Both the position numbers and the translations under genes were made by a program. Below are positions 596-35,543 of a DNA stretch of 42,468 nucleotides, piece by piece (position 1 is the stretch's first letter; the number at the start of each line of letters is the position of its first letter). The notes under the pieces were generated by a model, which worked only from the letters and a program-made list of their open reading frames with translations, did not search any database and had not been told where the DNA came from. Source of the DNA: Desulfobacteraceae bacterium (GTDB lineage Bacteria > Desulfobacterota > Desulfobacteria > Desulfobacterales > Desulfosarcinaceae); contig JARRKU010000065.1 in assembly GCA_037387725.1 (NCBI GenBank), forward strand, positions 7,008 through 49,475. The letters are read 5' to 3'.

Positions 596-911
596 TCGCC
601 GGTTGGGGTAAATCGCTGCGGGCTAAACCACCTTCGGCCGGGGAGGCCCATCCCGATAACTACATAAACCATTAAATTACAAACAGTTAACAACTTATAA
701 GGGGGTGGGGCGCCTTTGTCAAGGCATTCTCTCCAGTGGGTTCGCCCCCACCTGCAAGACCCGACAAATATGTATTTCCCTATTTAACCCTAAATACCCG
801 GATCTTACCTACATGTTGCACCTTGCATCCGGACAGACGGTGGTGGTATGGTGGTGCCCGACAAATCTTGCTGCACCAAGACCTAGAAGAGGGGACAAAG
901 AGGAGAGTTCC

Positions 912-1976
912 ATGGAGATTCAGATCAAAAAGACCCATCACCCCAAACCAAAACCAGATGAAAAAAATTTGGGGTTCGGCACCCATTTTACCGATCATAT
1001 GTTGAACATGGATTATACTTCGGATCTGGGGTGGCATAATCCGCGCATTGAGCCTTATGGCCCCTTTGTTCTGGACCCTGCAACCATGGTACTGCACTAT
1101 GGTCAAGGCATTTTCGAAGGTTTGAAGGCCTACCGCACCGAAAGCGGCGGTATTCAACTCTTCCGGCCCAGGGAAAATTTCAAACGCATGGCGGAATCCG
1201 CCCAAATGCTGTGCATGCCGCCAGTCGATGCAGACCAGGCAATAGAAGCGCTTAGAGCGCTTTTGCGCGTCGAGCAGGACTGGGTTCCAAGCGAGCCAGG
1301 CACCTCGCTGTACATCCGGCCCACAATGATCGCCACCGATCCGTTCCTGGGCGTCCGCGCTTCCTATACTTATCGGTTCTTTATCATTCTCTCCCCTGTG
1401 GGCGCCTACTATCCGGAAGGGTTCAATCCCGTCAAGATCCTGGTGACCCGAGATCATGTGCGTGCGGTTCGTGGAGGCCTGGGCGGTGCCAAAACCATGG
1501 CCAATTATGCGGCCAGCCTGCTGGCTGGCAAAAAGGCAGCGGAAGAAGGCTATACCCAGGTTTTGTGGCTGGACGGCATTGAACAAAAGTACGTGGAAGA
1601 AGTCGGCTCCATGAACATTTTCTTTGTTATCAACAATGAATTGATCACACCGGCGCTCAACGGGAGTATTTTGCCCGGCATCACCCGGAATTCGGTTCTC
1701 CAGCTGGCACAGCAATGGGGCGTCACTGCAACTGAACGAAGAATCTCCATCAAAGAGATATTTGAGGCCAATCAATCAGGAACGCTTTCTGAGGTCTTCG
1801 GCTCAGGCACCGCCGCCGTCATATCACCAGTAAGCGAATTGAAATGCGAAGATAAGATCATATCCATCGGTGATGGTAAGGTCGGCCCCATGGCACAACG
1901 GCTCTTCGATGCCCTAATGGATATTCAATATGGGCGCGCCCAGGATGAATTGGGCTGGATTGAGCCCGCACTATAA
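912..1976 (+). CDS. ilvE: Branched-chain amino acid aminotransferase (class IV)
   Basis: 354 aa from ATG 912, with RBS AGGAGAG at 901-907. Typical IlvE motifs (GFGTHFTDHM, YGQGIFEGLKAYR, LLAGKKAAEEGY). The longer ORF from 705 is an upstream extension. Confidence 0.9.
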   Translation: MEIQIKKTHHPKPKPDEKNLGFGTHFTDHMLNMDYTSDLGWHNPRIEPYGPFVLDPATMVLHYGQGIFEGLKAYRTESGGIQLFRPRENFKRMAESAQMLCMPPVDADQAIEALRALLRVEQDWVPSEPGTSLYIRPTMIATDPFLGVRASYTYRFFIILSPVGAYYPEGFNPVKILVTRDHVRAVRGGLGGAKTMANYAASLLAGKKAAEEGYTQVLWLDGIEQKYVEEVGSMNIFFVINNELITPALNGSILPGITRNSVLQLAQQWGVTATERRISIKEIFEANQSGTLSEVFGSGTAAVISPVSELKCEDKIISIGDGKVGPMAQRLFDALMDIQYGRAQDELGWIEPAL

Positions 1977-2002
1977 TTTTTACGTAATGTTAAGGAGTTT
2001 CG

Positions 2003-2875
2003 ATGAAGGTTCGTAAAGCCGTTTTTCCTGTTGCCGGATTGGGAACCCGTTTCCTCCCCGCCACCAAGGCCATGCCCAAAGAGATGCTTCCGGTGGTGGA
2101 CAAACCGTTGATCCAATATGCAGTGGAAGAAGCCCTGAAGGCCGGCATCGAAGATATTATTTTTGTCACCGGCAAGGGAAAACAATCCATCGAAGATCAC
2201 TTCGACCACTATTGTGAACTGGAACACACCCTGATGGCCCGCAGCAAAGAGACCCTGTTGCGGGAGATCACGACCCTTGTGCCGGAGTCGGGGACCCTGG
2301 TTTATACCCGTCAGAACGAACCATTGGGTCTCGGCCATGCGATCTGGTGTGCCCGTAATGTAGTGGGAAACGAACCCTTTGCCGTCCTTTTGGCGGATGA
2401 CTTGATCAAAGCGCAAACGCCTGTTTTGAAACAAATGATAGATCGCTTCAACGAGATCCAATGCTCCATGGTCTGCATCGAAGAGGTTAACCGTCAGGCC
2501 ACAGCCAGCTACGGGATTCTGGATGCCGACATGCCAAAAGACAACCTGACCCAAATTCGCGCTTTGGTGGAAAAACCCAATCCGGAGGATGCCCCGAGCA
2601 ATCTGGCTATCATCGGCCGCTATATTCTGACGCCGGAGATTTTTGGTATCCTTGGAAAAAAAGAGACCGGTGCAGGCGGAGAAATTCAGATCACCGATGC
2701 CATGCAAAGGCTCCTTAACATTCAATCCATCTATGGCTTCACCTATGAAGGCACCCGTTTCGATTGCGGCACCAAAGTCGGCTTTCAAATGGCCAATATC
2801 GCTTTCGCCCTGGACCGCAGGGATATGCGCGACCGATTATTACCGTTCCTCCAGGAGATGTGCGCCGTCGGATAG
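2003..2875 (+). CDS. galU: UTP--glucose-1-phosphate uridylyltransferase
   Basis: N-terminus MKVRKAVFPVAGLGTRFLPATKAMPKEMLPVVDKPLIQY is the GalU signature. RBS AAGGAG at 1992-1997. Confidence 0.9.
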   Translation: MKVRKAVFPVAGLGTRFLPATKAMPKEMLPVVDKPLIQYAVEEALKAGIEDIIFVTGKGKQSIEDHFDHYCELEHTLMARSKETLLREITTLVPESGTLVYTRQNEPLGLGHAIWCARNVVGNEPFAVLLADDLIKAQTPVLKQMIDRFNEIQCSMVCIEEVNRQATASYGILDADMPKDNLTQIRALVEKPNPEDAPSNLAIIGRYILTPEIFGILGKKETGAGGEIQITDAMQRLLNIQSIYGFTYEGTRFDCGTKVGFQMANIAFALDRRDMRDRLLPFLQEMCAVG

Positions 2876-2943
2876 TCTCTTTTTGCTCAATGCCCTAAAC
2901 CGGCTGCCGTACCCGGCCGTCGACCTTTCCGGCAGGACGAAAA

Positions 2944-3558
2944 ATGTTGAGTACCGAGTTTCTTTTGACCTCTTTGGTGGTGGTCCTTGCTCCGGGAACT
3001 GGGGTGATCTATACCGTAACGATGGGAATTCTATCCGGGAGGAAGTCGAGCGTCGCGGCGGCGGTGGGTTGCACCGCCGGCATTGTCCCGCACCTTCTGG
3101 CGGCCATTTTTGGATTATCCGCTATTATGCATATGGGATCACTGGCGTTTCAGGTCATTAGATGGACCGGTGCAATCTATCTCCTCTACCTGGCGTGGTC
3201 CATGTGGCGCGAGAGCGGCGTTTTGAAATTCGATGCGGGAGATACGAAAAAAAGCTGCCGGCAAATCGCTGTCAGGGGTGTCCTGATCAACATATTCAAC
3301 CCAAAATTATCGATCTTCTTCCTTGCTTTTCTACCCCTTTTTGTATCTCCATCCGAATCATCGCCTGTGGCGCAGCTGTTGCGGTTGAGCGCCGTTTTCA
3401 TGGGCATGACATTGATCATCTTCATCTTGTACGGCCTTTCGGCCACCGCAGTCCGCAACTGGGTCACCCATTCGCCCAGGCGCATGGTCTGGCTGCAGCG
3501 ATCCATTGCCGCCCTCTTTGCAGCAATGGGCGCCAAGCTGGCACTGAGCCAAAACTGA
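2944..3558 (+). CDS. LysE/RhtB-family amino-acid exporter
   Basis: 204 aa with a 6-TM pattern and the N-terminal motif LAPGTGVIYTV typical of the LysE family. Confidence 0.85.
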   Translation: MLSTEFLLTSLVVVLAPGTGVIYTVTMGILSGRKSSVAAAVGCTAGIVPHLLAAIFGLSAIMHMGSLAFQVIRWTGAIYLLYLAWSMWRESGVLKFDAGDTKKSCRQIAVRGVLINIFNPKLSIFFLAFLPLFVSPSESSPVAQLLRLSAVFMGMTLIIFILYGLSATAVRNWVTHSPRRMVWLQRSIAALFAAMGAKLALSQN

Positions 3559-3852
3559 TTCTTAAACCATTCTTTTGCGCAAGCTTTTAGAAGCTAACTA
3601 CAAAACGGATTTGAGTATTAGGTGCAGGCTGTGCCGGTTTCTAAACCGCAGGCACACGCTTGTAGGTTGAGGATTTGGAACCCGGTCCCAACGTCCAGAT
3701 TGGGCGAAAAACTTTTATGGATCGCTTCTGCAAGGCGAGCTATTTCTGCGGCTATAAAAGGCAGGACGCCTGAGGCCCGATGGTGTGGGGGTTGGGGCCG
3801 CAGGCGTCGCGGTTGTTACCGATTGACATCGGTAAGCGCTTGCAGGGGGGGA

Positions 3853-4668: not shown

Positions 4669-5649
4669 TTATGATACGATCAGTATGGTGGACCCCCTGG
4701 TCTTGCGCCCTTCAAGGTCGTTATGGGCCTGAGCGGCGTCTTTCAGGGCATAGGTCTGGCCGATATGGATGCGCACAACACCATTGGTCACCATCTGAAA
4801 TAGATCACGGGCATGGTCCTGCAAGTCTTTCCGTTTCTCTGTGTAGGTCATCAGGCTGGGACGGGTCAGAAACAAGGAACCTTTCTGGCCAAGGATGGAA
4901 AAGTCCATGGGCGCAATAGGTCCAGAAGATTGCCCAAATGAGACCATCATCCCCATAGGCCGCAGACAATCCAGCGACTGCATGAAGGTTGCCTGGCCCA
5001 CCGAGTCATAAACCACATCCACACCCCGGTTGTCTGTAATGTCGCGCACCTGCCGCTCCCAACCGGCATCGGTATACAAAATCGGGTGATCGCAGCCGTT
5101 GGCACTGGCGGCCTCGGCCTTTTCCGGACTACCCACAGTGCCGATGACAGTGGCGCCCAGTGCCTTGGCCCACTGGCAAACCAGGGTCCCCACACCGCCG
5201 GCGGCGGCGTGAATCAGTAAGGTGGTGCTTTTGCCCACCGGGTAACATCCTTTGAGCAGATAACGAGCGGTCATTCCCTGCAGCATCATACCTGCGGCGT
5301 CCCGCAGAGAAATCGCTTCCGGCACTTTCACCAGGCGATGGGCCGGAATGCGGCGTTTTTCCGCATAAGCACCCGGCGGCACACCAGCATACGCCACCCG
5401 GTCGCCGGAAGCCAGACCGCTCACGCCTTCCCCCACCGCCTCTACAATGCCAGCCCCCTCCATTCCAAGGATAGCCGGCAGCTGGGGCAGGGGATACAGA
5501 CCGGTGCGATGGTAGACATCGATGTAGTTGAGCCCTACGGCCTCCTGCCGGATAAGGGCTTCGCCCGGGCCTGGTGCGCCCGGATTGTATTCCTCCCACT
5601 TGAGGACATCGGAACCACCGGTTTTATGGATTCGTATCGCATGGGTCAT
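4669..5649 (-). CDS. qor: NADPH:quinone oxidoreductase (Zn-independent medium-chain dehydrogenase family)
   Basis: 326 aa, MTHAIRIHKTGGSDVLKWEEY... and GAAGGVG nucleotide motif. RBS AAGGAGG upstream of ATG 5649. Confidence 0.9.
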   Translation of the reverse strand: MTHAIRIHKTGGSDVLKWEEYNPGAPGPGEALIRQEAVGLNYIDVYHRTGLYPLPQLPAILGMEGAGIVEAVGEGVSGLASGDRVAYAGVPPGAYAEKRRIPAHRLVKVPEAISLRDAAGMMLQGMTARYLLKGCYPVGKSTTLLIHAAAGGVGTLVCQWAKALGATVIGTVGSPEKAEAASANGCDHPILYTDAGWERQVRDITDNRGVDVVYDSVGQATFMQSLDCLRPMGMMVSFGQSSGPIAPMDFSILGQKGSLFLTRPSLMTYTEKRKDLQDHARDLFQMVTNGVVRIHIGQTYALKDAAQAHNDLEGRKTRGSTILIVS

Positions 5650-6342
5650 GACTGCCTCCTTTCAATGCTTTCCCTCTACATTAATTCACCGCTGCCAAAA
5701 GGACAATGCCACGCCGATAACAAAAACCGGCCGGGCCTTCCTTCAGCCAATGCCAGGCGATCCGGCATTGACTTATTATCAGCCATTTGGCATAGTTGGG
5801 ACCAATAAGATTACACGAAACCCCTGGCTTCCAAAACTACGTTGAGGCCCTATGGTGCTGATGCTGCCGGTTCAATCCATTGTGCTTTGTTTGGATCCTT
5901 CATGAGCTATGTGCCTTCAAGATATAGAACCTATCTCAAAAAAGTCCTTTGTCCCAATCTGGGTGTTGGGACCGAATTCCAAATCCTCGCCATACTACAG
6001 TATGCCTGCGGTTTGAAACCCGGCCCCGCCTACACCTTGGACCAAAATCCGTTTTTTGAGATAGGTTATAGAACGATCATCGGCCAACACCCAGATCTGC
6101 ACCTGTTTCCAGACCACCCAAATAAAAGAATACCGGAGGCATCGGGCCTCCATATACAATATCCCTGTTACCTGCAGAATAGGGCCACGGCCAACCCGGT
6201 TGGAAGTGGCCGTTATTTATGAACCCGCTAATCAATCCCAATCCCTGCCATCGAACAGGCAGGAATCGCCGAATGCGGGTGCACCATGGCGGATGGACCT
6301 TTGATAGCCAGTTGATGCTTATTTGAAAGGAGCTCCGGCAAC

Positions 6343-23500: not shown

Positions 23501-23676
23501 AGACCATGGCCGGCACAGAGGCCGGCCCTACGATTTCATCGATTATTATCTCAATATAAAGCTTTTCGAAGGGCAGGGCTCCGTACCCGCCTGCCCGGGT
23601 GTCATCTGCATCCCAGCCACCGGCCGGCACAAAGGTCGACCCTGCGACCGCTTTCTCCACACTGTGTGTGATAAGA

Positions 23677-23776
23677 GTTGAAAAAGCCTAAGGGCTTCAT
23701 AGCCAAGGCGGAGAGGGTGAAGCCGTAGTTAATCTACTGCGAACCCTCAACAGCGCAGGATATGAAGTCCTTACTG
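23677..23776. repeat. Copy 1 of a ~100-bp palindromic element (partial right arm)
   Basis: GTTGAAAAAGCCTAAGGGCTTCATAGCCAAGGCGGAGAGGGTGAAGCCGTAGT... is near-identical to copy 2, which lies 159 bp downstream. Confidence 0.7.
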
Positions 23777-23833
23777 ACCGGCAAAGAGGTCCCCCATCCT
23801 GCACTCGTCCTCTCCACTCCCTGAGCATTTAAA

Positions 23834-23937
23834 GTTGAAAAAGCCTAAGGGCTTCATAGCCAAGGCGGAGAGGGTGAAGCCGTAGTAATACTACTGCGAA
23901 CCCTCGACAACACAGGATATGAAGTCCTTAGGCTTTT

Positions 23938-23942
<5 letters not shown>
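23834..23942. terminator. Copy 2 of the palindromic element. Acts as a bidirectional intrinsic terminator that includes the nadB stop codon.
   Basis: 24-bp terminal inverted repeats (GTTGAAAAAGCCTAAGG[G/A]CTTCAT) flank a 60-nt core. Both strands end in GGCTTTTTC. The nadB TGA (23938-23940) lies in the T-run. Confidence 0.65.
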
Positions 23943-29075: not shown

Positions 29076-29148
29076 TGTCTGGTACAGGATTCGAACCTGT
29101 TACACCTGCAGTAAAAGTGCAGTGCTCTACCCATTGAGCTAACCAAGC
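29076..29148 (-). tRNA. tRNA-Lys (anticodon UUU)
   Basis: Minus-strand sequence GCTTGGT-TA-GCTC-AATGGGTA-GAGC-A-CTGCA-CTTTTAC-TGCAG-GTGTA-ACAGG-TTCGAAT-CCTGT-ACCAGAC-A. Cloverleaf is intact except for a C2:A71 mismatch in the acceptor stem. 3' CCA is not encoded. Confidence 0.8.
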
Positions 29149-31132: not shown

Positions 31133-31528
31133 AGCAGCAGGAAAGCCCAATGCCGCTCCTGATGCAGCCATGGTTTTTGTCGTATTGACAAGCCGTATCG
31201 GCTATGATTTTCTAGATAAACAGCAGACGGTCCGCTCCTTCGATCTCCTTCGACACCGGCAGCCGTTGCTTTTCCCTGCTCACCGGAGCAAGTGCAGCCG
31301 TTCTCTGCAAAACGGGGGGGTCTCGCCTGCCGCAGCATCGGAACTGCTGCAATCCCATATCGAGAAAATCGACCCGGCAAGGGCTGTTACGGCCTTGCCG
31401 TAGCATCCATATTCATAACGCCGCGCGCGACCGGGAGCCCTTTGCTTTTCTGCGAACCGCTGCCGGCCGGCGGATCGGTAATGGTTTGCCTTTGGTGCGT
31501 CGGCATGGAGAAAAGGGAGGTATCGGAA

Positions 31529-33408
31529 ATGGCAGAGAACCAAGCGGCGATGGACAAGAGTCTGGACCCGGCCGTACGGCAGATGATCGCCAAGGCGCAG
31601 GACCAGGAGGTGAGCACGGTGTGGGACCGCTATGCGGCCATGACCCCCCAATGCAGTTTCGGCGACACGGGCTTGTGCTGTCGCCACTGCCTGCAGGGGC
31701 CCTGCCGCATCGATCCCTTTGGTGAAGGCCCCCAAACCGGCATCTGCGGCGCCAACGCCGACGTGATGGTGGCCAGGGGGCTCGACCGGGCCATTGCGGC
31801 CGGCACGGCGGCCCACTCGGGACATGCCCGCCATCTGGCCCACACCCTGAAAAAGATGGCCCAGGGAAAGACCGAAGCCTATACGATCAAAGATGGCGAC
31901 AAACTAAGGGCTGTGGCCGCACGGCTCAACATTGACGTGGAGGGCCGCCAGGAGAGCGAGATCGCCCTGGATGTGGCCGATGCGGCCCTGGCCGATTTCC
32001 ACGAAAAGGAGACCCCTGTGCTCTGGGCAGCCACAGTGGTCAACGAGGAACGGGCCAAGGTGCTCACCGACCTCAACCTGGTGCCCGTGGGCATCGACCA
32101 CGAAGTCTCCGAAATCATGCACCGCACCCTCTACGGCGTGGACGCGGATCCGGTCAACCTGCTCATCGGCGGGCTGCGATGCGGGGTGGCCGATCTGGCC
32201 GGTTGTTACATGGGCACCGACCTGGCCGATATCCTCTTCGGCGTTCCCCAGCCCACCATGACCGCCGCCAATCTGGGCACCCTGAAGGCCGATGCGGTCA
32301 ACATCGCCCTGCACGGCCACAATCCGGTGCTCTCCGATCTGCTGGTCACCTCCGCCGAAGCCAAGCAGGATGCGGCGCGCGCGGCCGGCGCCTCCGGCAT
32401 CAACCTGGTGGGGATCTGCTGCACGGGCAACGAGGTGATGATGCGCCACGGCATCCCGGCCTGCACCCATTCGGTGAGCCAGGAGATGGCCATCATGACC
32501 GGCGCCCTGGACGCCATGGTGGTGGACTACCAGCCGGCACCGAGATCATCACCACCATGGATATCGCCAAGATCAGCGGCGCCACCCATGTGGACTTCAG
32601 CGAAGAGCTGGCCGGTCCCAAGGCGTATGAGATCTTCGACAGGGCCATCGACAACTTCAAACGGCGGCGAAACAAAGCCGTGGACATACCGGATGTCAAG
32701 ACCCCGGTGATGGCCGGCTTCTCGGTAGAGGCCATCGTAGCGGCGCTCTCCAAACTGGACGCCAACGAGCCCCTCAAACCGGTGGTGGACCACCTCAAGG
32801 CGGGCAATATCCGCGGGGTCTGCCTCTTTGCCGGCTGCAACAACGTGAAGGTGGCCCAGGACAGGAACTTCATCCATATCGCCAGAAAACTGCTCAAAGA
32901 GAACGTGCTGGTGGTGGCCACCGGGTGCGGCGCCGGCGCATTGATGCGCCACGGCTTCATGGACCCGGCCAACACGGACGCGCTTTGCGGCGACGGCATC
33001 AAAGCGGTGCTCACCGCCATCGGCGAAGCCAACGGCTTGGGCGGACCGCTGCCGCCGGTGATCCACATGGGTTCCTGCGTGGACAATTCCCGGGCCGTGG
33101 CCCTCACCGTGGCCCTGGCCCAGTATGTGGGCGTCGACACCCAGCAACTGCCGGTGGTGGCTTCGGCCGCCGAAGCGGTTTCGGAAAAGGCGGTCTCCAT
33201 CGGCGCCTATGCCGTGGCGGCCGGACTGCCCACCCATGTGGGGGTGATGCTCCCGGTGCTGGGCAGCCAGCTGGTGGCCCAGGTGCTCACCGAAAAAGTC
33301 AAGGACCTGACCGGCGGCTACTTCATCGTGGACCTCGATCCGGACAGCGCCGCAGACAAGCTGCTGGCCGCCATTGACGAACGGCGGAAAGGGCTGGGAC
33401 TTGAATAA
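31529..33408 (+). pseudogene. cooS: Anaerobic carbon-monoxide dehydrogenase catalytic subunit, interrupted by a frameshift or internal deletion near 32534
   Basis: ATG 31529 with RBS AAGGGAGG. N-terminal Cys motifs (CSFGDTGLCCRHCLQGPCRI) and C-cluster region (INLVGICCTGNE). The reading frame switches between ...AMVVDYQ (frame 2) and GTEIITTMDIAK... (frame 1). The expected DYQC cysteine segment is absent. Confidence 0.75.
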
Positions 33409-33429
33409 AGCTTCGCTTTATGAACCGAA

Positions 33430-33550
33430 GAATATCGAACATGGAATTTCGAATGTCGAAGTGTGGCGTCGCTGCGCTCCATCAATTTATATGAATGATA
33501 AAATACCTTACTTCGAAATTCTGCGGTTCCTTGTTCGAAATTCGATATTC
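33430..33550. repeat. Palindromic repeat element A (about 120 bp) in the cooS-cooF spacer
   Basis: GAATATCGAACATGGAATTTCGAATGTCGAAGTGTGG ... CTTCGAAATTCTGCGGTTCCTTGTTCGAAATTCGATATTC. Its reverse complement matches element B at 35409-35543 (37/38 nt in the best block). Confidence 0.7.
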
Positions 33551-33566
33551 TTACGAGGAGTCGGAA

Positions 33567-34076
33567 ATGAAACAACCCAAAGAAATCTTCGTGCGGCTGG
33601 ACCGCTGCATGGGATGCCATAGCTGCGAGATGGCCTGCGCCGTGGCCCACTCCCAGAGCAAGCGCCTGTATGGCGCACTGGCGGAAACCACCCTGCCCAA
33701 GCCGAGGCTCTATGTGGAGGCCGTGACCGCCGATAACAAGGCGGTGCCCATCCTTTGCCGCCATTGCGAAGACGCCCCGTGCATGCACGCCTGTATCGCC
33801 GGCGCCATCAGCCGGAGCGATGCCGGCGTGGTGGCCACGGACAAGGACAAGTGCATCGGTTGCTGGACCTGCGTTATGGTCTGCCCCTACGGCGTCATCG
33901 GCCGGCACATGCAGGAACTCAAAGCCTACCGCTGCGACCGCTGCCCCGACCTGGAGACCCCGGCCTGCGTGAGCGCCTGCCCCTCAAAGGCGCTGCTCTA
34001 CCAGAGCGCCGACGATTACTCCCGCGGCGTCCGACAGACGGCAGCCGGTGAACTGCTGACAGGCGAAGGGGGGTAG
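33567..34076 (+). CDS. cooF: CooF-like 4Fe-4S ferredoxin-type iron-sulfur protein
   Basis: RBS GAGGAG. Four CxxCxxCxxxCP-like clusters (CMGCHSCEMAC, CRHCEDAPCMHAC, CIGCWTCVMVCP, CDRC...CVSACP). Confidence 0.85.
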   Translation: MKQPKEIFVRLDRCMGCHSCEMACAVAHSQSKRLYGALAETTLPKPRLYVEAVTADNKAVPILCRHCEDAPCMHACIAGAISRSDAGVVATDKDKCIGCWTCVMVCPYGVIGRHMQELKAYRCDRCPDLETPACVSACPSKALLYQSADDYSRGVRQTAAGELLTGEGG

Positions 34077-34081
34077 GCGCC

Positions 34082-35356
34082 ATGGCACAAAAACAATATC
34101 TGATCGTGGGCGGCAGCGCCGCCGGCATGGCCGCCGCCGAAACCATCGCCTGCCTGGACCCGGAAGGCAAGGTGCAGGTGCTGAGCGAGGAAGCCGACGC
34201 CCCTTACTTCCGCCCCCTGATCCCCTTTATCATCAGCCGGAAGAAAAACGACCGGCAGATCTTCCTGCAGGGGCAGGGGCCCTATGGTTCCGGAAAAGCC
34301 GAAATCCGGCTGCAGACCCGGGCCCGGCACATCGACCCCGATGCCCGGGCCGTGGTCGCCGACACCGGCGAATCCTTTGCCTACGACCGGCTGCTCATCG
34401 CAACGGGCAGCCGGCCGTACATTCCCGAAGAGATCGCAGGTACGGATCTGGAAGGGGTCTTTGCACTGAGAACCCTGGCCGATGCCCGGAAAGCCGAACA
34501 ACGGGCGGAGGTCACCCGGCATGCGGTGATGCTGGGCGGCGGCCTGCTCAACCTCAAGGCGGCCTTTGCTCTGCTGGAGCGCGGCATCGCCGTCACCCTG
34601 GTGGTTTTCTCGCCGGAAGTGCTCAGCCAGCTCATGGAGCCTGAAGACGCTCTGCTGATCCGCCGTGCCCTGGACCAGGCCGGGCTGCGCATCGTCACCG
34701 GCGCAGCCGCCACCTACATCACGGGCAATGGCAGCGGCGTCACCGGTGTGGTGCTGGACAACGGGGAGGAGATGGCGTGTGAGATGGTCTGTATCGGCAA
34801 GGGGGTGCGCCCCAATACCCGATGGATCGCAGAGAGCGGCATCGATATCCAAACGGGTGTGGTGGCGGACAAGTTCACCCGCACCACGTCTCCCGATGTT
34901 TATACCGCCGGCGACGCGGCCGTGACCTTCGATCCCATCACCGGAGAACCGATGGTCACCGGGCTATGGACCAATGCAGTGGAGATGGGACGCTGCGCCG
35001 GCGCCAACATGGCCGGCCGCCCCACTGCCTACGGCGGCACCTTCGGCATCCTCAACGCCACACAGGTGGCCCGCATGCCTTTTGTCGCCATGGGTGTGGT
35101 GCACACCAGCGGAACCGACTGCGAAGTGCATCGCCGGCAGACGACCAACGCCTATCGCAAACTGGTCTTCTCCCCCGAGGGCGACCGGTTGATCGGGGCC
35201 GTCCTGGTCGGCGACATCGGCAATGCCGGCCTCTACCGGGCGTTGATAAGGGATCGCATGCCGCTCGACGGCATCAAAGGGCAGGTGATCGACCACACCC
35301 TGCACTACGGCCATTTGCTGCTGGCCACAAGGACGATGACACCGATTAGTGCTTAA
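34082..35356 (+). CDS. FAD-dependent pyridine nucleotide-disulfide oxidoreductase (NADH-oxidase/CoA-disulfide-reductase-like)
   Basis: IVGGSAAGMAAA FAD dinucleotide-binding motif, second Rossmann fold (VMLGGGLLNLKAA) and C-terminal dimerisation domain. Co-directional with and adjacent to cooF. Confidence 0.85.
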   Translation: MAQKQYLIVGGSAAGMAAAETIACLDPEGKVQVLSEEADAPYFRPLIPFIISRKKNDRQIFLQGQGPYGSGKAEIRLQTRARHIDPDARAVVADTGESFAYDRLLIATGSRPYIPEEIAGTDLEGVFALRTLADARKAEQRAEVTRHAVMLGGGLLNLKAAFALLERGIAVTLVVFSPEVLSQLMEPEDALLIRRALDQAGLRIVTGAAATYITGNGSGVTGVVLDNGEEMACEMVCIGKGVRPNTRWIAESGIDIQTGVVADKFTRTTSPDVYTAGDAAVTFDPITGEPMVTGLWTNAVEMGRCAGANMAGRPTAYGGTFGILNATQVARMPFVAMGVVHTSGTDCEVHRRQTTNAYRKLVFSPEGDRLIGAVLVGDIGNAGLYRALIRDRMPLDGIKGQVIDHTLHYGHLLLATRTMTPISA

Positions 35357-35408
35357 GGGCCAATTACTCTGGTATCGGCTTTAAGAGGGACGAAGCGCCG
35401 GAATTTCG

Positions 35409-35543
35409 AATATCGAACAAGGAACCGCAGAATGTCGAAATTAAGCATTCTGTCATTTATATATATAAGAATGGCAGAGCGAAGCGATTCCACACTTCGA
35501 CATTCGAAATTCCTTGTTCGATATTCTGCGGTTCTATCCCGCC
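35409..35543. repeat. Palindromic repeat element B, inverted relative to element A, overlapping the recD2 stop
   Basis: GGAATTTCGAATATCGAACAAGGAACCGCAGAATGTCGAA ... CCACACTTCGACATTCGAAATTCCTTGTTCGATATTCTGCGGTTC. Confidence 0.7.

Follow-up and report, generated by a model that had tools for sequence, protein, structure and literature searches.

Two opposite, gene-less copies of a widespread heptad-armed palindromic element flank cooF and an oxidoreductase gene in a Desulfobacteraceae bacterium

The analyzed stretch of DNA (the window) comprises 42,468 nucleotides (nt) of contig JARRKU010000065.1 (positions 7,008 to 49,475, forward strand) from the assembly GCA_037387725.1 of a Desulfobacteraceae bacterium. 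It contains a coo locus, in which cooS (31292-33408, plus strand, stop codon at 33406-33408) is followed by cooF, encoding an Fe-S protein (33568..34076, plus strand; Fer4 Pfam families were found on its orthologs), and by a gene encoding a FAD/NAD(P) pyridine-nucleotide-disulfide oxidoreductase (34082..35356, plus strand). A gene for a recD2-type helicase converges on them from the minus strand (stop codon at 35534-35536). Two palindromic elements bracket cooF and the oxidoreductase gene, both of which lie outside the elements. Element A (33422..33550, plus strand, 129 nt) occupies the spacer that follows the cooS stop codon, has the sense direction of the coo operon and ends 5 nt ahead of the cooF ribosome-binding site GAGGAG. 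Element B (35401..35534, minus strand, 134 nt) is located between the convergent oxidoreductase and recD2 genes and has the sense direction of recD2; a spacer of 44 nt separates it from the end of the oxidoreductase gene. A and B are probably two independent copies, inserted in opposite orientations and devoid of an open reading frame (ORF), of a widespread palindromic cassette that elsewhere carries the gene of a four-helix-bundle (4HB) protein, and their effect, as far as can be judged, would be exerted at the RNA level.

The existence of the two elements and their reverse-complement kinship, proposed in the initial annotation of this DNA, were confirmed by a repeat computation over the whole window. 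Two inverted pairs link the elements, namely, 33422-33479 with 35477-35534 (58 nt, 91%) and 33485-33550 with 35401-35466 (66 nt, 83%). When A is read on the plus strand and B on the minus strand, they align end to end with 87% column identity, and the sole indel is 5 nt in the AT-rich centre. The longest perfect blocks shared by the elements are a 24-mer and a 21-mer, each found twice in the window vs. 0.00-0.01 times in shuffled sequences. The limits proposed in the initial annotation were roughly right: both starts had been placed 8 nt too far to the right, and B ends at 35534 instead of 35543. Its overlap with the recD2 stop codon, also reported there, is real and amounts to 1 nt, while a block said to match at 37 of 38 positions is in fact 37 nt long with one mismatch (36/37).

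In both elements, the left arm consists of GAA-N4 heptads and the right arm of N4-TTC heptads, the right-arm units that end in TTC being GACATTC, TGCGGTTC, CTTGTTC, GATATTC, and GAAATTC. A search for runs of at least three units of GAA-N4-5 followed by GAA found exactly four in the 42-kb window, and these are the four arms (0.02 in shuffled sequences). The left arm of A (33422..33466, plus strand) reads GAACCGAA GAATATC GAACATG GAATTTC GAATGTC GAAGTGTGG, and that of B (35490..35534, minus strand) reads GAACCGCA GAATATC GAACAAG GAATTTC GAATGTC GAAGTGTGG; the latter begins with the base that ends the recD2 stop codon. The right arms are CTTCGAAATTC TGCGGTTC CTTGTTC GAAATTC GATATTC in A (33511..33550, plus strand) and TTTCGACATTC TGCGGTTC CTTGTTC GATATTC GAAATTC in B (35401..35441, minus strand). 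The centre of A (33467..33510, plus strand) comprises a mostly unpaired CGTCGCTGCGCTC block and then an AT-rich apical loop. The "shuffled modules" noticed earlier correspond to these arrays of 7-nt units, which are arranged differently in the left and right arm of an element, so that the hairpin contains internal loops.

Both elements fold as long imperfect hairpins, in agreement with the palindromic structure first ascribed to them. The folding energies on the two strands were -36.5/-37.1 kcal/mol for A (z -3.1/-4.1) and -53.3/-51.3 kcal/mol for B (z -7.4/-6.3), and the duplex of B is quasi-continuous (17 + 6 + 10 bp). Rfam, at gathering and permissive thresholds, contains no family for A or B; chance hairpins hit by miRNA models reached 22 bits vs. 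a gathering score of 90. Each element includes a remnant mini-ORF. In A, it is located at 33453..33494 (plus strand; ATG TCG AAG TGT ... TGA, translated as MSKCGVAALHQFI and a stop), and its resemblance to the start of a 4HB gene is confined to the first three codons; in B, it is located at 35453..35503 (minus strand; MSKCGIASLCHSYIYK and a stop). Judging from the sequence comparisons, the mini-ORFs are probably not genes: as candidates for real peptides they were rejected, since the block varies non-synonymously among copies and is interrupted by nested insertions. Two promoter candidates were also set aside. A sigma-54 promoter in the conserved TGGAATCGCTTCGC block, considered by eye, has a GG-to-GC spacing one base short, and a scan for sigma-70 promoters gave weak 9/12 matches within the arms, outward and antisense, which were not used as evidence.

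At several loci with arms of this kind, the arms are 250-600 nt apart with a gene between them. The enclosed ORFs of ~125 aa match the Pfam family PF05635 (23S rRNA-intervening sequence protein) with E-values of 1e-11 to 1e-15, as well as the NCBIfam family TIGR02436 (four helix bundle protein). According to a hidden Markov model search of all ORFs in the fetched loci, 8/8 PF05635-like ORFs are located between heptad arms; the arms were supported by a regular-expression match on at least one side for seven of them and by eye for that of locus L053. In these cassettes, the AAGGA of the arm is the ribosome-binding site of the gene, the ATG of the unit GAATGTC is its start codon (MSK...), and the 3' arm of N4-TTC heptads follows directly after its stop codon. 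The 4HB gene was the sole gene type seen between such arms in the loci examined, and no transposase was found there. PADLOC defence models gave no match with the 4HB proteins.

The 4HB gene of L042, a locus from a deltaproteobacterial metagenome-assembled genome (MAG), was not the match by which this locus had been selected, and it is located 1-2 kb from ORF-less hairpins of this family. A search with its protein yielded at least 7996 clusters; the best 120 showed 74-100% identity (74-85% for all but the query's own cluster), and many of these 120 clusters are on contigs of 0.5-2 kb. To remove selection bias, loci were fetched through the exact protein only, without arm sequence. All five independent contexts selected in this way (L179, L193, L185/L196, L197/L201, and L205) have the same arms. 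In these five and in L042, the arms take the form ...GAACCGCAGAATATCGAACAAGGAAT...GA-ATG TCG AAG and TAA-TTCGAAATTCCTTGTTCGATATTCGATATTC; L196 reads GAACCGCAGAATATCGAACAAGGAATAACGA-ATG TCG AAG ... TAA-TTCGAAATTTCTTGTTCGATATTCGATATT, and the arm of L185, ACCGCAGAATGTCGAACAAGGAATTTCGA-ATG TCG AAG, is identical to that of B over GAACAAGGAATTTCGAATGTCGAAG. The 4HB genes are co-oriented with the upstream gene in 5/6 contexts and can lie within operons, for example, in the oppC-oppD gap in L205 and in the B12-binding/HGD-D gap in L179, a placement consistent with expression by read-through.

Alignments show that A and B possess the same arms as the cassettes, i.e., left GAA-N4 heptads leading to AAGGAAT-N4-5-ATG TCG AAG and a right arm TTCGAAATTC..CTTGTTCGATATTCGATATTC. 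The left arm of B retains the AAGGA ribosome-binding site and ATG TCG AAG; that of A is likewise homologous to the cassette 5' arm, with a degenerate ribosome-binding-site position (ATGGA) and ATG TCG AAG, and the right arm of A is homologous to the 3' arm that comes after the stop codon of the 4HB gene. In A on the plus strand and B on the minus strand, the whole left arm including ATG TCG AAG is followed by a divergent centre of ~45 nt and a standard right arm. A jackhmmer analysis of all window ORFs detected no PF05635 ORF in A, in B, or in the rest of the window. Since the arms and the first three codons are kept and the gene is replaced by the ~45-nt centre, A and B appear to be internal-deletion derivatives of the cassette, similar to transposable elements of the miniature inverted-repeat type (MITEs).

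A separate observation concerns heptad hairpins and one 4HB cassette located inside the hsdM frame of type I restriction-modification systems in L001 (~900-3850, minus strand), L035, and L015 (an Akkermansia muciniphila MAG). In L001, the reading frame continues across the element and meets no stop (...RRALIKAD[REMPSGEIRTTNRVSPTSTFEIHLSNFAS]LPGQLFY...), and L001 and L015 have a common break point after FLKYISD. GAA heptads of the A/B type are free of stop codons in all six frames. The hsdM insertions could represent a decaying gene or a tolerated in-frame insertion.

The distribution of the family was assessed using the exact arm 20-mer GAATTTCGAATGTCGAAGTG, which was found in 54 loci from at least seven phyla in a scan covering one genome per species; ~1 chance match is expected in 596 Gb. 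The carriers belong to Bacteroidota (Saprospiraceae, Sediminibacterium, Flavobacteriales, and the isolate Algoriphagus antarcticus DSM 15986, locus L026), Planctomycetota, Verrucomicrobiota (including Akkermansia), Desulfobacterota, Acidobacteriota, Rhodothermales, and Fibrobacter. The heptads beside the 20-mer, which were outside the query, are shared as well, a typical arm being GAATATCGAATATCGAACAAGGAATTTCGAATGTCGAAGTG. Between phyla, the arms outside the searched 20-mer are 76-90% identical, and the cargo proteins 30-60%. The element is therefore by no means unique to its two sites in the window, the outcome that the initial annotation had named as refuting its view: many copies exist in other genomes. 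A local duplication as the origin of A and B was rejected, the same arm being present in all these loci across phyla.

As for the copy number, the 21-mer of the centre-arm junction, CGATTCCACACTTCGACATTC, occurs in at least 120 metagenome stretches, which correspond to ~94 distinct places after dereplication. Among the matches listed, 15 contigs came from a single metagenome, which suggests that related organisms carry tens of copies. Judged from these sequence matches, the family is multi-copy and mostly intergenic, and a genome in related Desulfobacteraceae-type metagenomes apparently carries tens of copies; the window has two copies in 42 kb. A scan of viral contigs and a BLAST search of plasmids gave no matches and hence no sign of a phage or plasmid vector. 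In the flanks common to the metagenome copies, neither a transposase nor a larger mobile element was found; these flanks are composed of more heptad mosaic and of a GATCAGACTGGCC..GGCCAGAGGC hairpin. The metagenome copies have AAAGC...GCTTT at their edges, which is an inverted and not a direct repeat.

In one metagenome (Ga0209454; contigs L066, L076, L077, L129, and others), the elements form mosaics resembling bacterial interspersed mosaic elements (BIMEs). Their units (GAATGAC/GATTGAC, TTCGATG/TTGGACG, AAATCCA/AAATCCG) alternate with a GATCAGACTGGCC-T-run-GGCCAGAGGC hairpin, and copies from this metagenome have nested 30-40-nt insertions between AATCGCT and TCGCTCAG of the centre.

Four orthologous loci were available for comparison; in each of them, cooS, cooF, and the oxidoreductase gene run one way, and recD2 together with a HAD hydrolase gene runs the other way. 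In L055 (94% protein identity, oxidoreductase), both A and B are present. L056 (87%; the same MAG as L031) contains B and lacks A, the cooS-cooF spacer being an unrelated sequence of 63 nt. In L057/L058 (82%), only the left arm of A and a 7-nt remnant are found, with the same left junction; B is absent, and the convergent stop codons are 3 nt apart. Within the span of genus-level divergence, A and B are thus acquired, lost, and eroded. The bracketed cooF-oxidoreductase segment has the same orientation in L055, L056, L057, and L058. No direct repeat indicative of a target-site duplication is visible at the filled and empty orthologous sites, which differ by more than the element. The A-less cooS-cooF spacer of L056 (5422-5486) has a different small hairpin (CACTACC...GGTAGTG), so that a stem-loop between these two cistrons may recur in the operon.

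In addition, cooS of the window has a frameshift, in which the initial annotation saw a sign of a recombinationally active locus. It results from the absence of 37 nt (TGCATCATGCCCGCGGTGGTCAACGTTGCCGAGTGCG) at 32533/32534, which are present in L055 and L056, and the deletion removes the region coding for the conserved YQCIMP motif. This suggestion finds no support, since the deletion is ~900 nt upstream of A and has no heptad-family repeat at its edges; cooS of the window is either a pseudogene or the product of an assembly error.

A role in RNA stability or processing is the best functional guess for A and B, and an RNA-level consequence appears the most likely because of the analogy with gene-carrying 23S rRNA intervening sequences (IVSs) and of the presumed transcription of A and B with their neighbours. 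The operon mRNA would contain A in its cooS-cooF spacer, and the convergent transcripts of the oxidoreductase gene and recD2 would both include B at their 3' ends. Either element, as RNA, would fold into an imperfect hairpin of 40-50 bp, similar to the RNase III substrate in the gene-carrying IVSs. RNase III might then cut the hairpin, or the hairpin might block exonucleases and stabilise the mRNA at this place. The cooS mRNA would thereby be uncoupled from the cooF-oxidoreductase mRNA, and protected 3' ends would be formed.

A hint of RNA-level action comes from 82 dereplicated copies of the element. Folding of their sense strand, defined as the one that carries the ribosome-binding site and ATG, is more favourable by 3.7 kcal/mol than that of the antisense strand (Wilcoxon p = 2e-5), and G-U pairs are more numerous in it (p = 0.02), a bias that is a classical sign of constraint at the RNA level.

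Several points weigh against this interpretation. RNase III processing of A and B is argued by analogy only, and the Coxiella heptamer GACAGAT differs from the GAA-N4 unit of A and B. The sense-strand bias rests on related copies and could be produced by mutation bias; the window's own copies have no difference in folding energy between sense and antisense strands. When left arms were combined with their own or with other right arms, the duplex energies were -32.7 vs. -32.0 kcal/mol (median rank 42.5/90) and the ungapped pairing scores 10.75 vs. 10.24, i.e., there was no arm-specific covariation signal. It is the heptad vocabulary that is conserved, not arm-specific complementarity, and this fits a constraint at the protein or DNA level at least equally well. 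Relative to the flanking ORFs (rough ORF calls), the ORF-less copies have no strand bias (++24, --33, +-29, -+13); divergent gene pairs are under-represented around them according to the same calls. Finally, neither the edges of the element nor target duplications can be defined from the comparison of filled and empty sites.

The interchangeable arms, which are also more conserved than the cargo, point to a sequence-specific partner, and one may speculate that the 4HB protein is the obvious candidate. It is conceivable, although we regard it as a tentative and rather doubtful idea, that the heptad cassette is an uncharacterised kind of mobile or self-propagating element in which the PF05635 protein partners the arms, and that A and B are non-autonomous copies served in trans. 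If so, the PF05635 protein would act in mobility, copying, or RNA handling. Such an element would explain why the arms are more conserved than the cargo, why they are interchangeable, and why thousands of near-identical 4HB genes are found on short contigs.

A further explanation, a serious alternative although we think it unlikely, is that the heptads are arrays bound by a sequence-specific protein (a nucleoid protein, a global regulator, or the 4HB protein itself) and act on double-stranded DNA or as a cruciform. It agrees with the conservation of arm sequence in the absence of conserved arm-specific complementarity, with an identity of the arms across phyla that exceeds that of the cargo, and with the different heptad order in the two arms of one element. 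Similarly, inverted pairs of five heptanucleotides in Geobacter metallireducens have been annotated as putative global-regulator sites (PMC2700814). However, no protein is known to bind the arms, the ribosome-binding site and start codon of the 4HB gene account for part of the arm conservation, and RNA is favoured by the sense-strand bias in folding energy and G-U pairs. The elements also occur behind stop codons and within operons, not in promoter regions, and the scarcity of divergent pairs around them argues in the same direction.

It is improbable that the elements are classical MITEs driven by a transposase or repetitive extragenic palindromic (REP) elements mobilised by a REP-associated tyrosine transposase (RAYT). 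The suggestion of MITE or REP-like intergenic elements, made in the initial annotation, was correct in kind: the family is multi-copy, hairpin-forming, and mostly intergenic, and its small size, terminal inverted arms, BIME-like mosaic clusters, nested insertions, and presence/absence polymorphism at orthologous sites would all be expected. The link to a transposase, however, is missing. The only gene found between the arms is that of the 4HB protein and never a transposase gene, the flanks common to the copies are heptad mosaic and not an insertion sequence, and phage contigs and plasmids gave no matches. Target-site duplications, which the initial annotation had proposed to look for, cannot be defined at the orthologous filled and empty sites. 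REP and MITE families are usually lineage-specific, and the sequence identity across phyla is atypical for such families.

Terminators were also proposed in the initial annotation; that the elements are Rho-independent, possibly bidirectional, transcription terminators is, in our opinion, a very improbable explanation. B does form a stable hairpin between convergent genes, and Bacteroidota copies (L005 and L033) can have a terminator-like hairpin with T runs in the centre. However, the stems of A and B are AT-rich, GC-poor, and 40-50 bp long with no T run after them; the terminator scan was negative for both A and B, whose flanks read TTACGAGG, TATCCCGC, and CGGCGCTT, and termination at A, inside the coo operon and just ahead of the cooF ribosome-binding site, would silence cooF. 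Least plausible of all, to the point of being nearly negligible, is the inversion of the cooF-oxidoreductase segment by recombination between A and B as suggested in the initial annotation: although inverted repeats of ~130 nt with 87% identity and perfect blocks of 24 and 21 nt, 1.85 kb apart, make a rare RecA-dependent event physically possible, 4/4 orthologous loci keep the gene order and orientation, including those with one complete element or none, and an inversion would part cooF and the oxidoreductase gene from cooS and any promoter upstream. The adjacent genes (cooS, cooF, and the oxidoreductase, recD2, and HAD hydrolase genes) include none for a recombinase, and the opposed arrangement is accounted for by two independent members of a family that is present many times per genome.

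Other repeats and RNAs were noted in the window. A second, unrelated inverted pair (3602-3709 and 5948-6055; 108 nt, 78% complementary) brackets ~2.2 kb that include a quinone-oxidoreductase-like ORF (4669-5649, minus strand); its sequence, ...GGTGCAGGCTGTGCCGGTTTCTAAACCGCAGGCA..., is unlike the heptad family. A third repeat is present as two tandem-spaced copies (23641-23773 and 23798-23930; 133 nt, 84%, 157 nt apart) and reads GTTGAAAAAGCCTAAGGGCTTCATAGCC...GGATATGAAGTCCTTA, with a 28-nt inverted copy at its end (23915-23942) and no Rfam match at the gathering score. The sole Rfam match in the window is a tRNA gene (29076-29148, minus strand).

Palindromic intergenic repeats are ordinary, and rRNA IVSs encoding 4HB proteins have been known since the 1990s. 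In this sense, there is nothing unusual about the locus: the repeats that flank cooF and the oxidoreductase gene are presumably selfish or neutral passengers and not a switch, and they probably shape the processing of the coo operon mRNA. The family behind A and B, in turn, bears on an old open question. We know of no function or mode of spread for rRNA IVSs and their S23p ORF in three decades (in the case of the protein function, since 1993). A non-coding arm of ~40 nt, built from 7-nt units, is nearly unchanged across Bacteroidota, Planctomycetota, Verrucomicrobiota, Desulfobacterota, Acidobacteriota, and further groups; wherever examined here, the gene of the 4HB "IVS protein" stands between such arms, and the arm is also found in many gene-less copies. 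That this architecture also exists away from rRNA, in many copies and accompanied by miniature derivatives, makes the old question of whether it is a mobile element experimentally testable. On the practical side, such elements probably break metagenome assemblies, many 4HB genes being on contigs of 0.5-2 kb, and probably generate spurious small ORFs.

In Rfam and the searchable literature, whose coverage is incomplete, no description was found of a heptad-armed cassette outside rRNA, of its conservation across phyla, or of abundant ORF-less derivatives, and an earlier description may exist; a literal search for the arm sequences in the literature (coverage likewise incomplete) returned nothing relevant. 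Among the known systems, MITEs resemble A and B in being short and non-coding, in deriving by internal deletion from a longer gene-carrying element whose termini are kept, and in being multi-copy, mostly intergenic, hairpin-forming, and polymorphic in presence. By size and structure (inverted termini, less than 300-500 bp, no coding capacity), A and B fall within the definition of MITEs. They differ in that their parent carries a 4HB gene and not a transposase gene, in the heptad arrays of the arms, and in the spread across phyla; no target-site duplication was visible at the sites compared.

REP elements and BIMEs act as mRNA stabilisers or processing sites. Those of Enterobacteria and Pseudomonas are likewise extragenic palindromes located after stop codons or between the genes of an operon, and form mosaic clusters. 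In contrast to A and B, which are ~130 nt long, have heptad arms of 40-45 nt, occur across phyla, and are tied to the 4HB gene, REP units measure 20-40 nt, are lineage-specific, and are tied to RAYT. The unit size of ~130 nt thus lies outside the range of REP elements; as regards RAYT association, no genome-wide search was made.

Tandem 7-nt units are also known elsewhere. The short tandemly repeated repetitive (STRR) sequences of heterocystous cyanobacteria are tandem heptanucleotide repeats dispersed in non-coding DNA; they have other sequences and belong to another phylum, so that their likeness to A and B, by description only, is a lead. In the genome of Geobacter metallireducens, four GGGACCG repeats are found at 49 sites, and inverted pairs of five MTYCTGA repeats are annotated as "class 3 global regulator sites" (PMC2700814). 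Compared by description, these deltaproteobacterial repeats share with A and B the tandem 7-nt units, the inverted pairs, the many copies, and the location between or within genes, whereas they consist of other heptamers, have no reported link to 4HB proteins, and are interpreted as regulator-binding sites (PMC2700814).

The documented relatives are the rRNA IVSs that carry S23p, as in Leptospira, Coxiella burnetii, and Brucella. In Coxiella, the 23S rRNA IVS with the S23p gene (PF05635 family) has a terminal stem of 28 bp, in which RNase III cuts, and tandem heptamers GACAGAT just upstream of the ORF in two to three copies depending on the strain; excision of IVSs from the transcript by RNase III is known for Coxiella, Leptospira, and Salmonella (PMC4990558). 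Like the A/B family, these IVSs have terminal inverted repeats that pair into a long stem enclosing the cargo, tandem heptamers in the 5' arm before the ORF, and a PF05635/TIGR02436 cargo as in the full-length relatives of A and B; they are part of a host transcript and exist in ORF-less forms too. The differences concern the location (helix 25/45 of 23S rRNA vs. an mRNA spacer and the interval between convergent genes), the lack of an ORF in A and B, the heptad unit (GACAGAT vs. GAA-N4), and the copy number, with one IVS per rRNA operon and tens of heptad-armed elements per genome.

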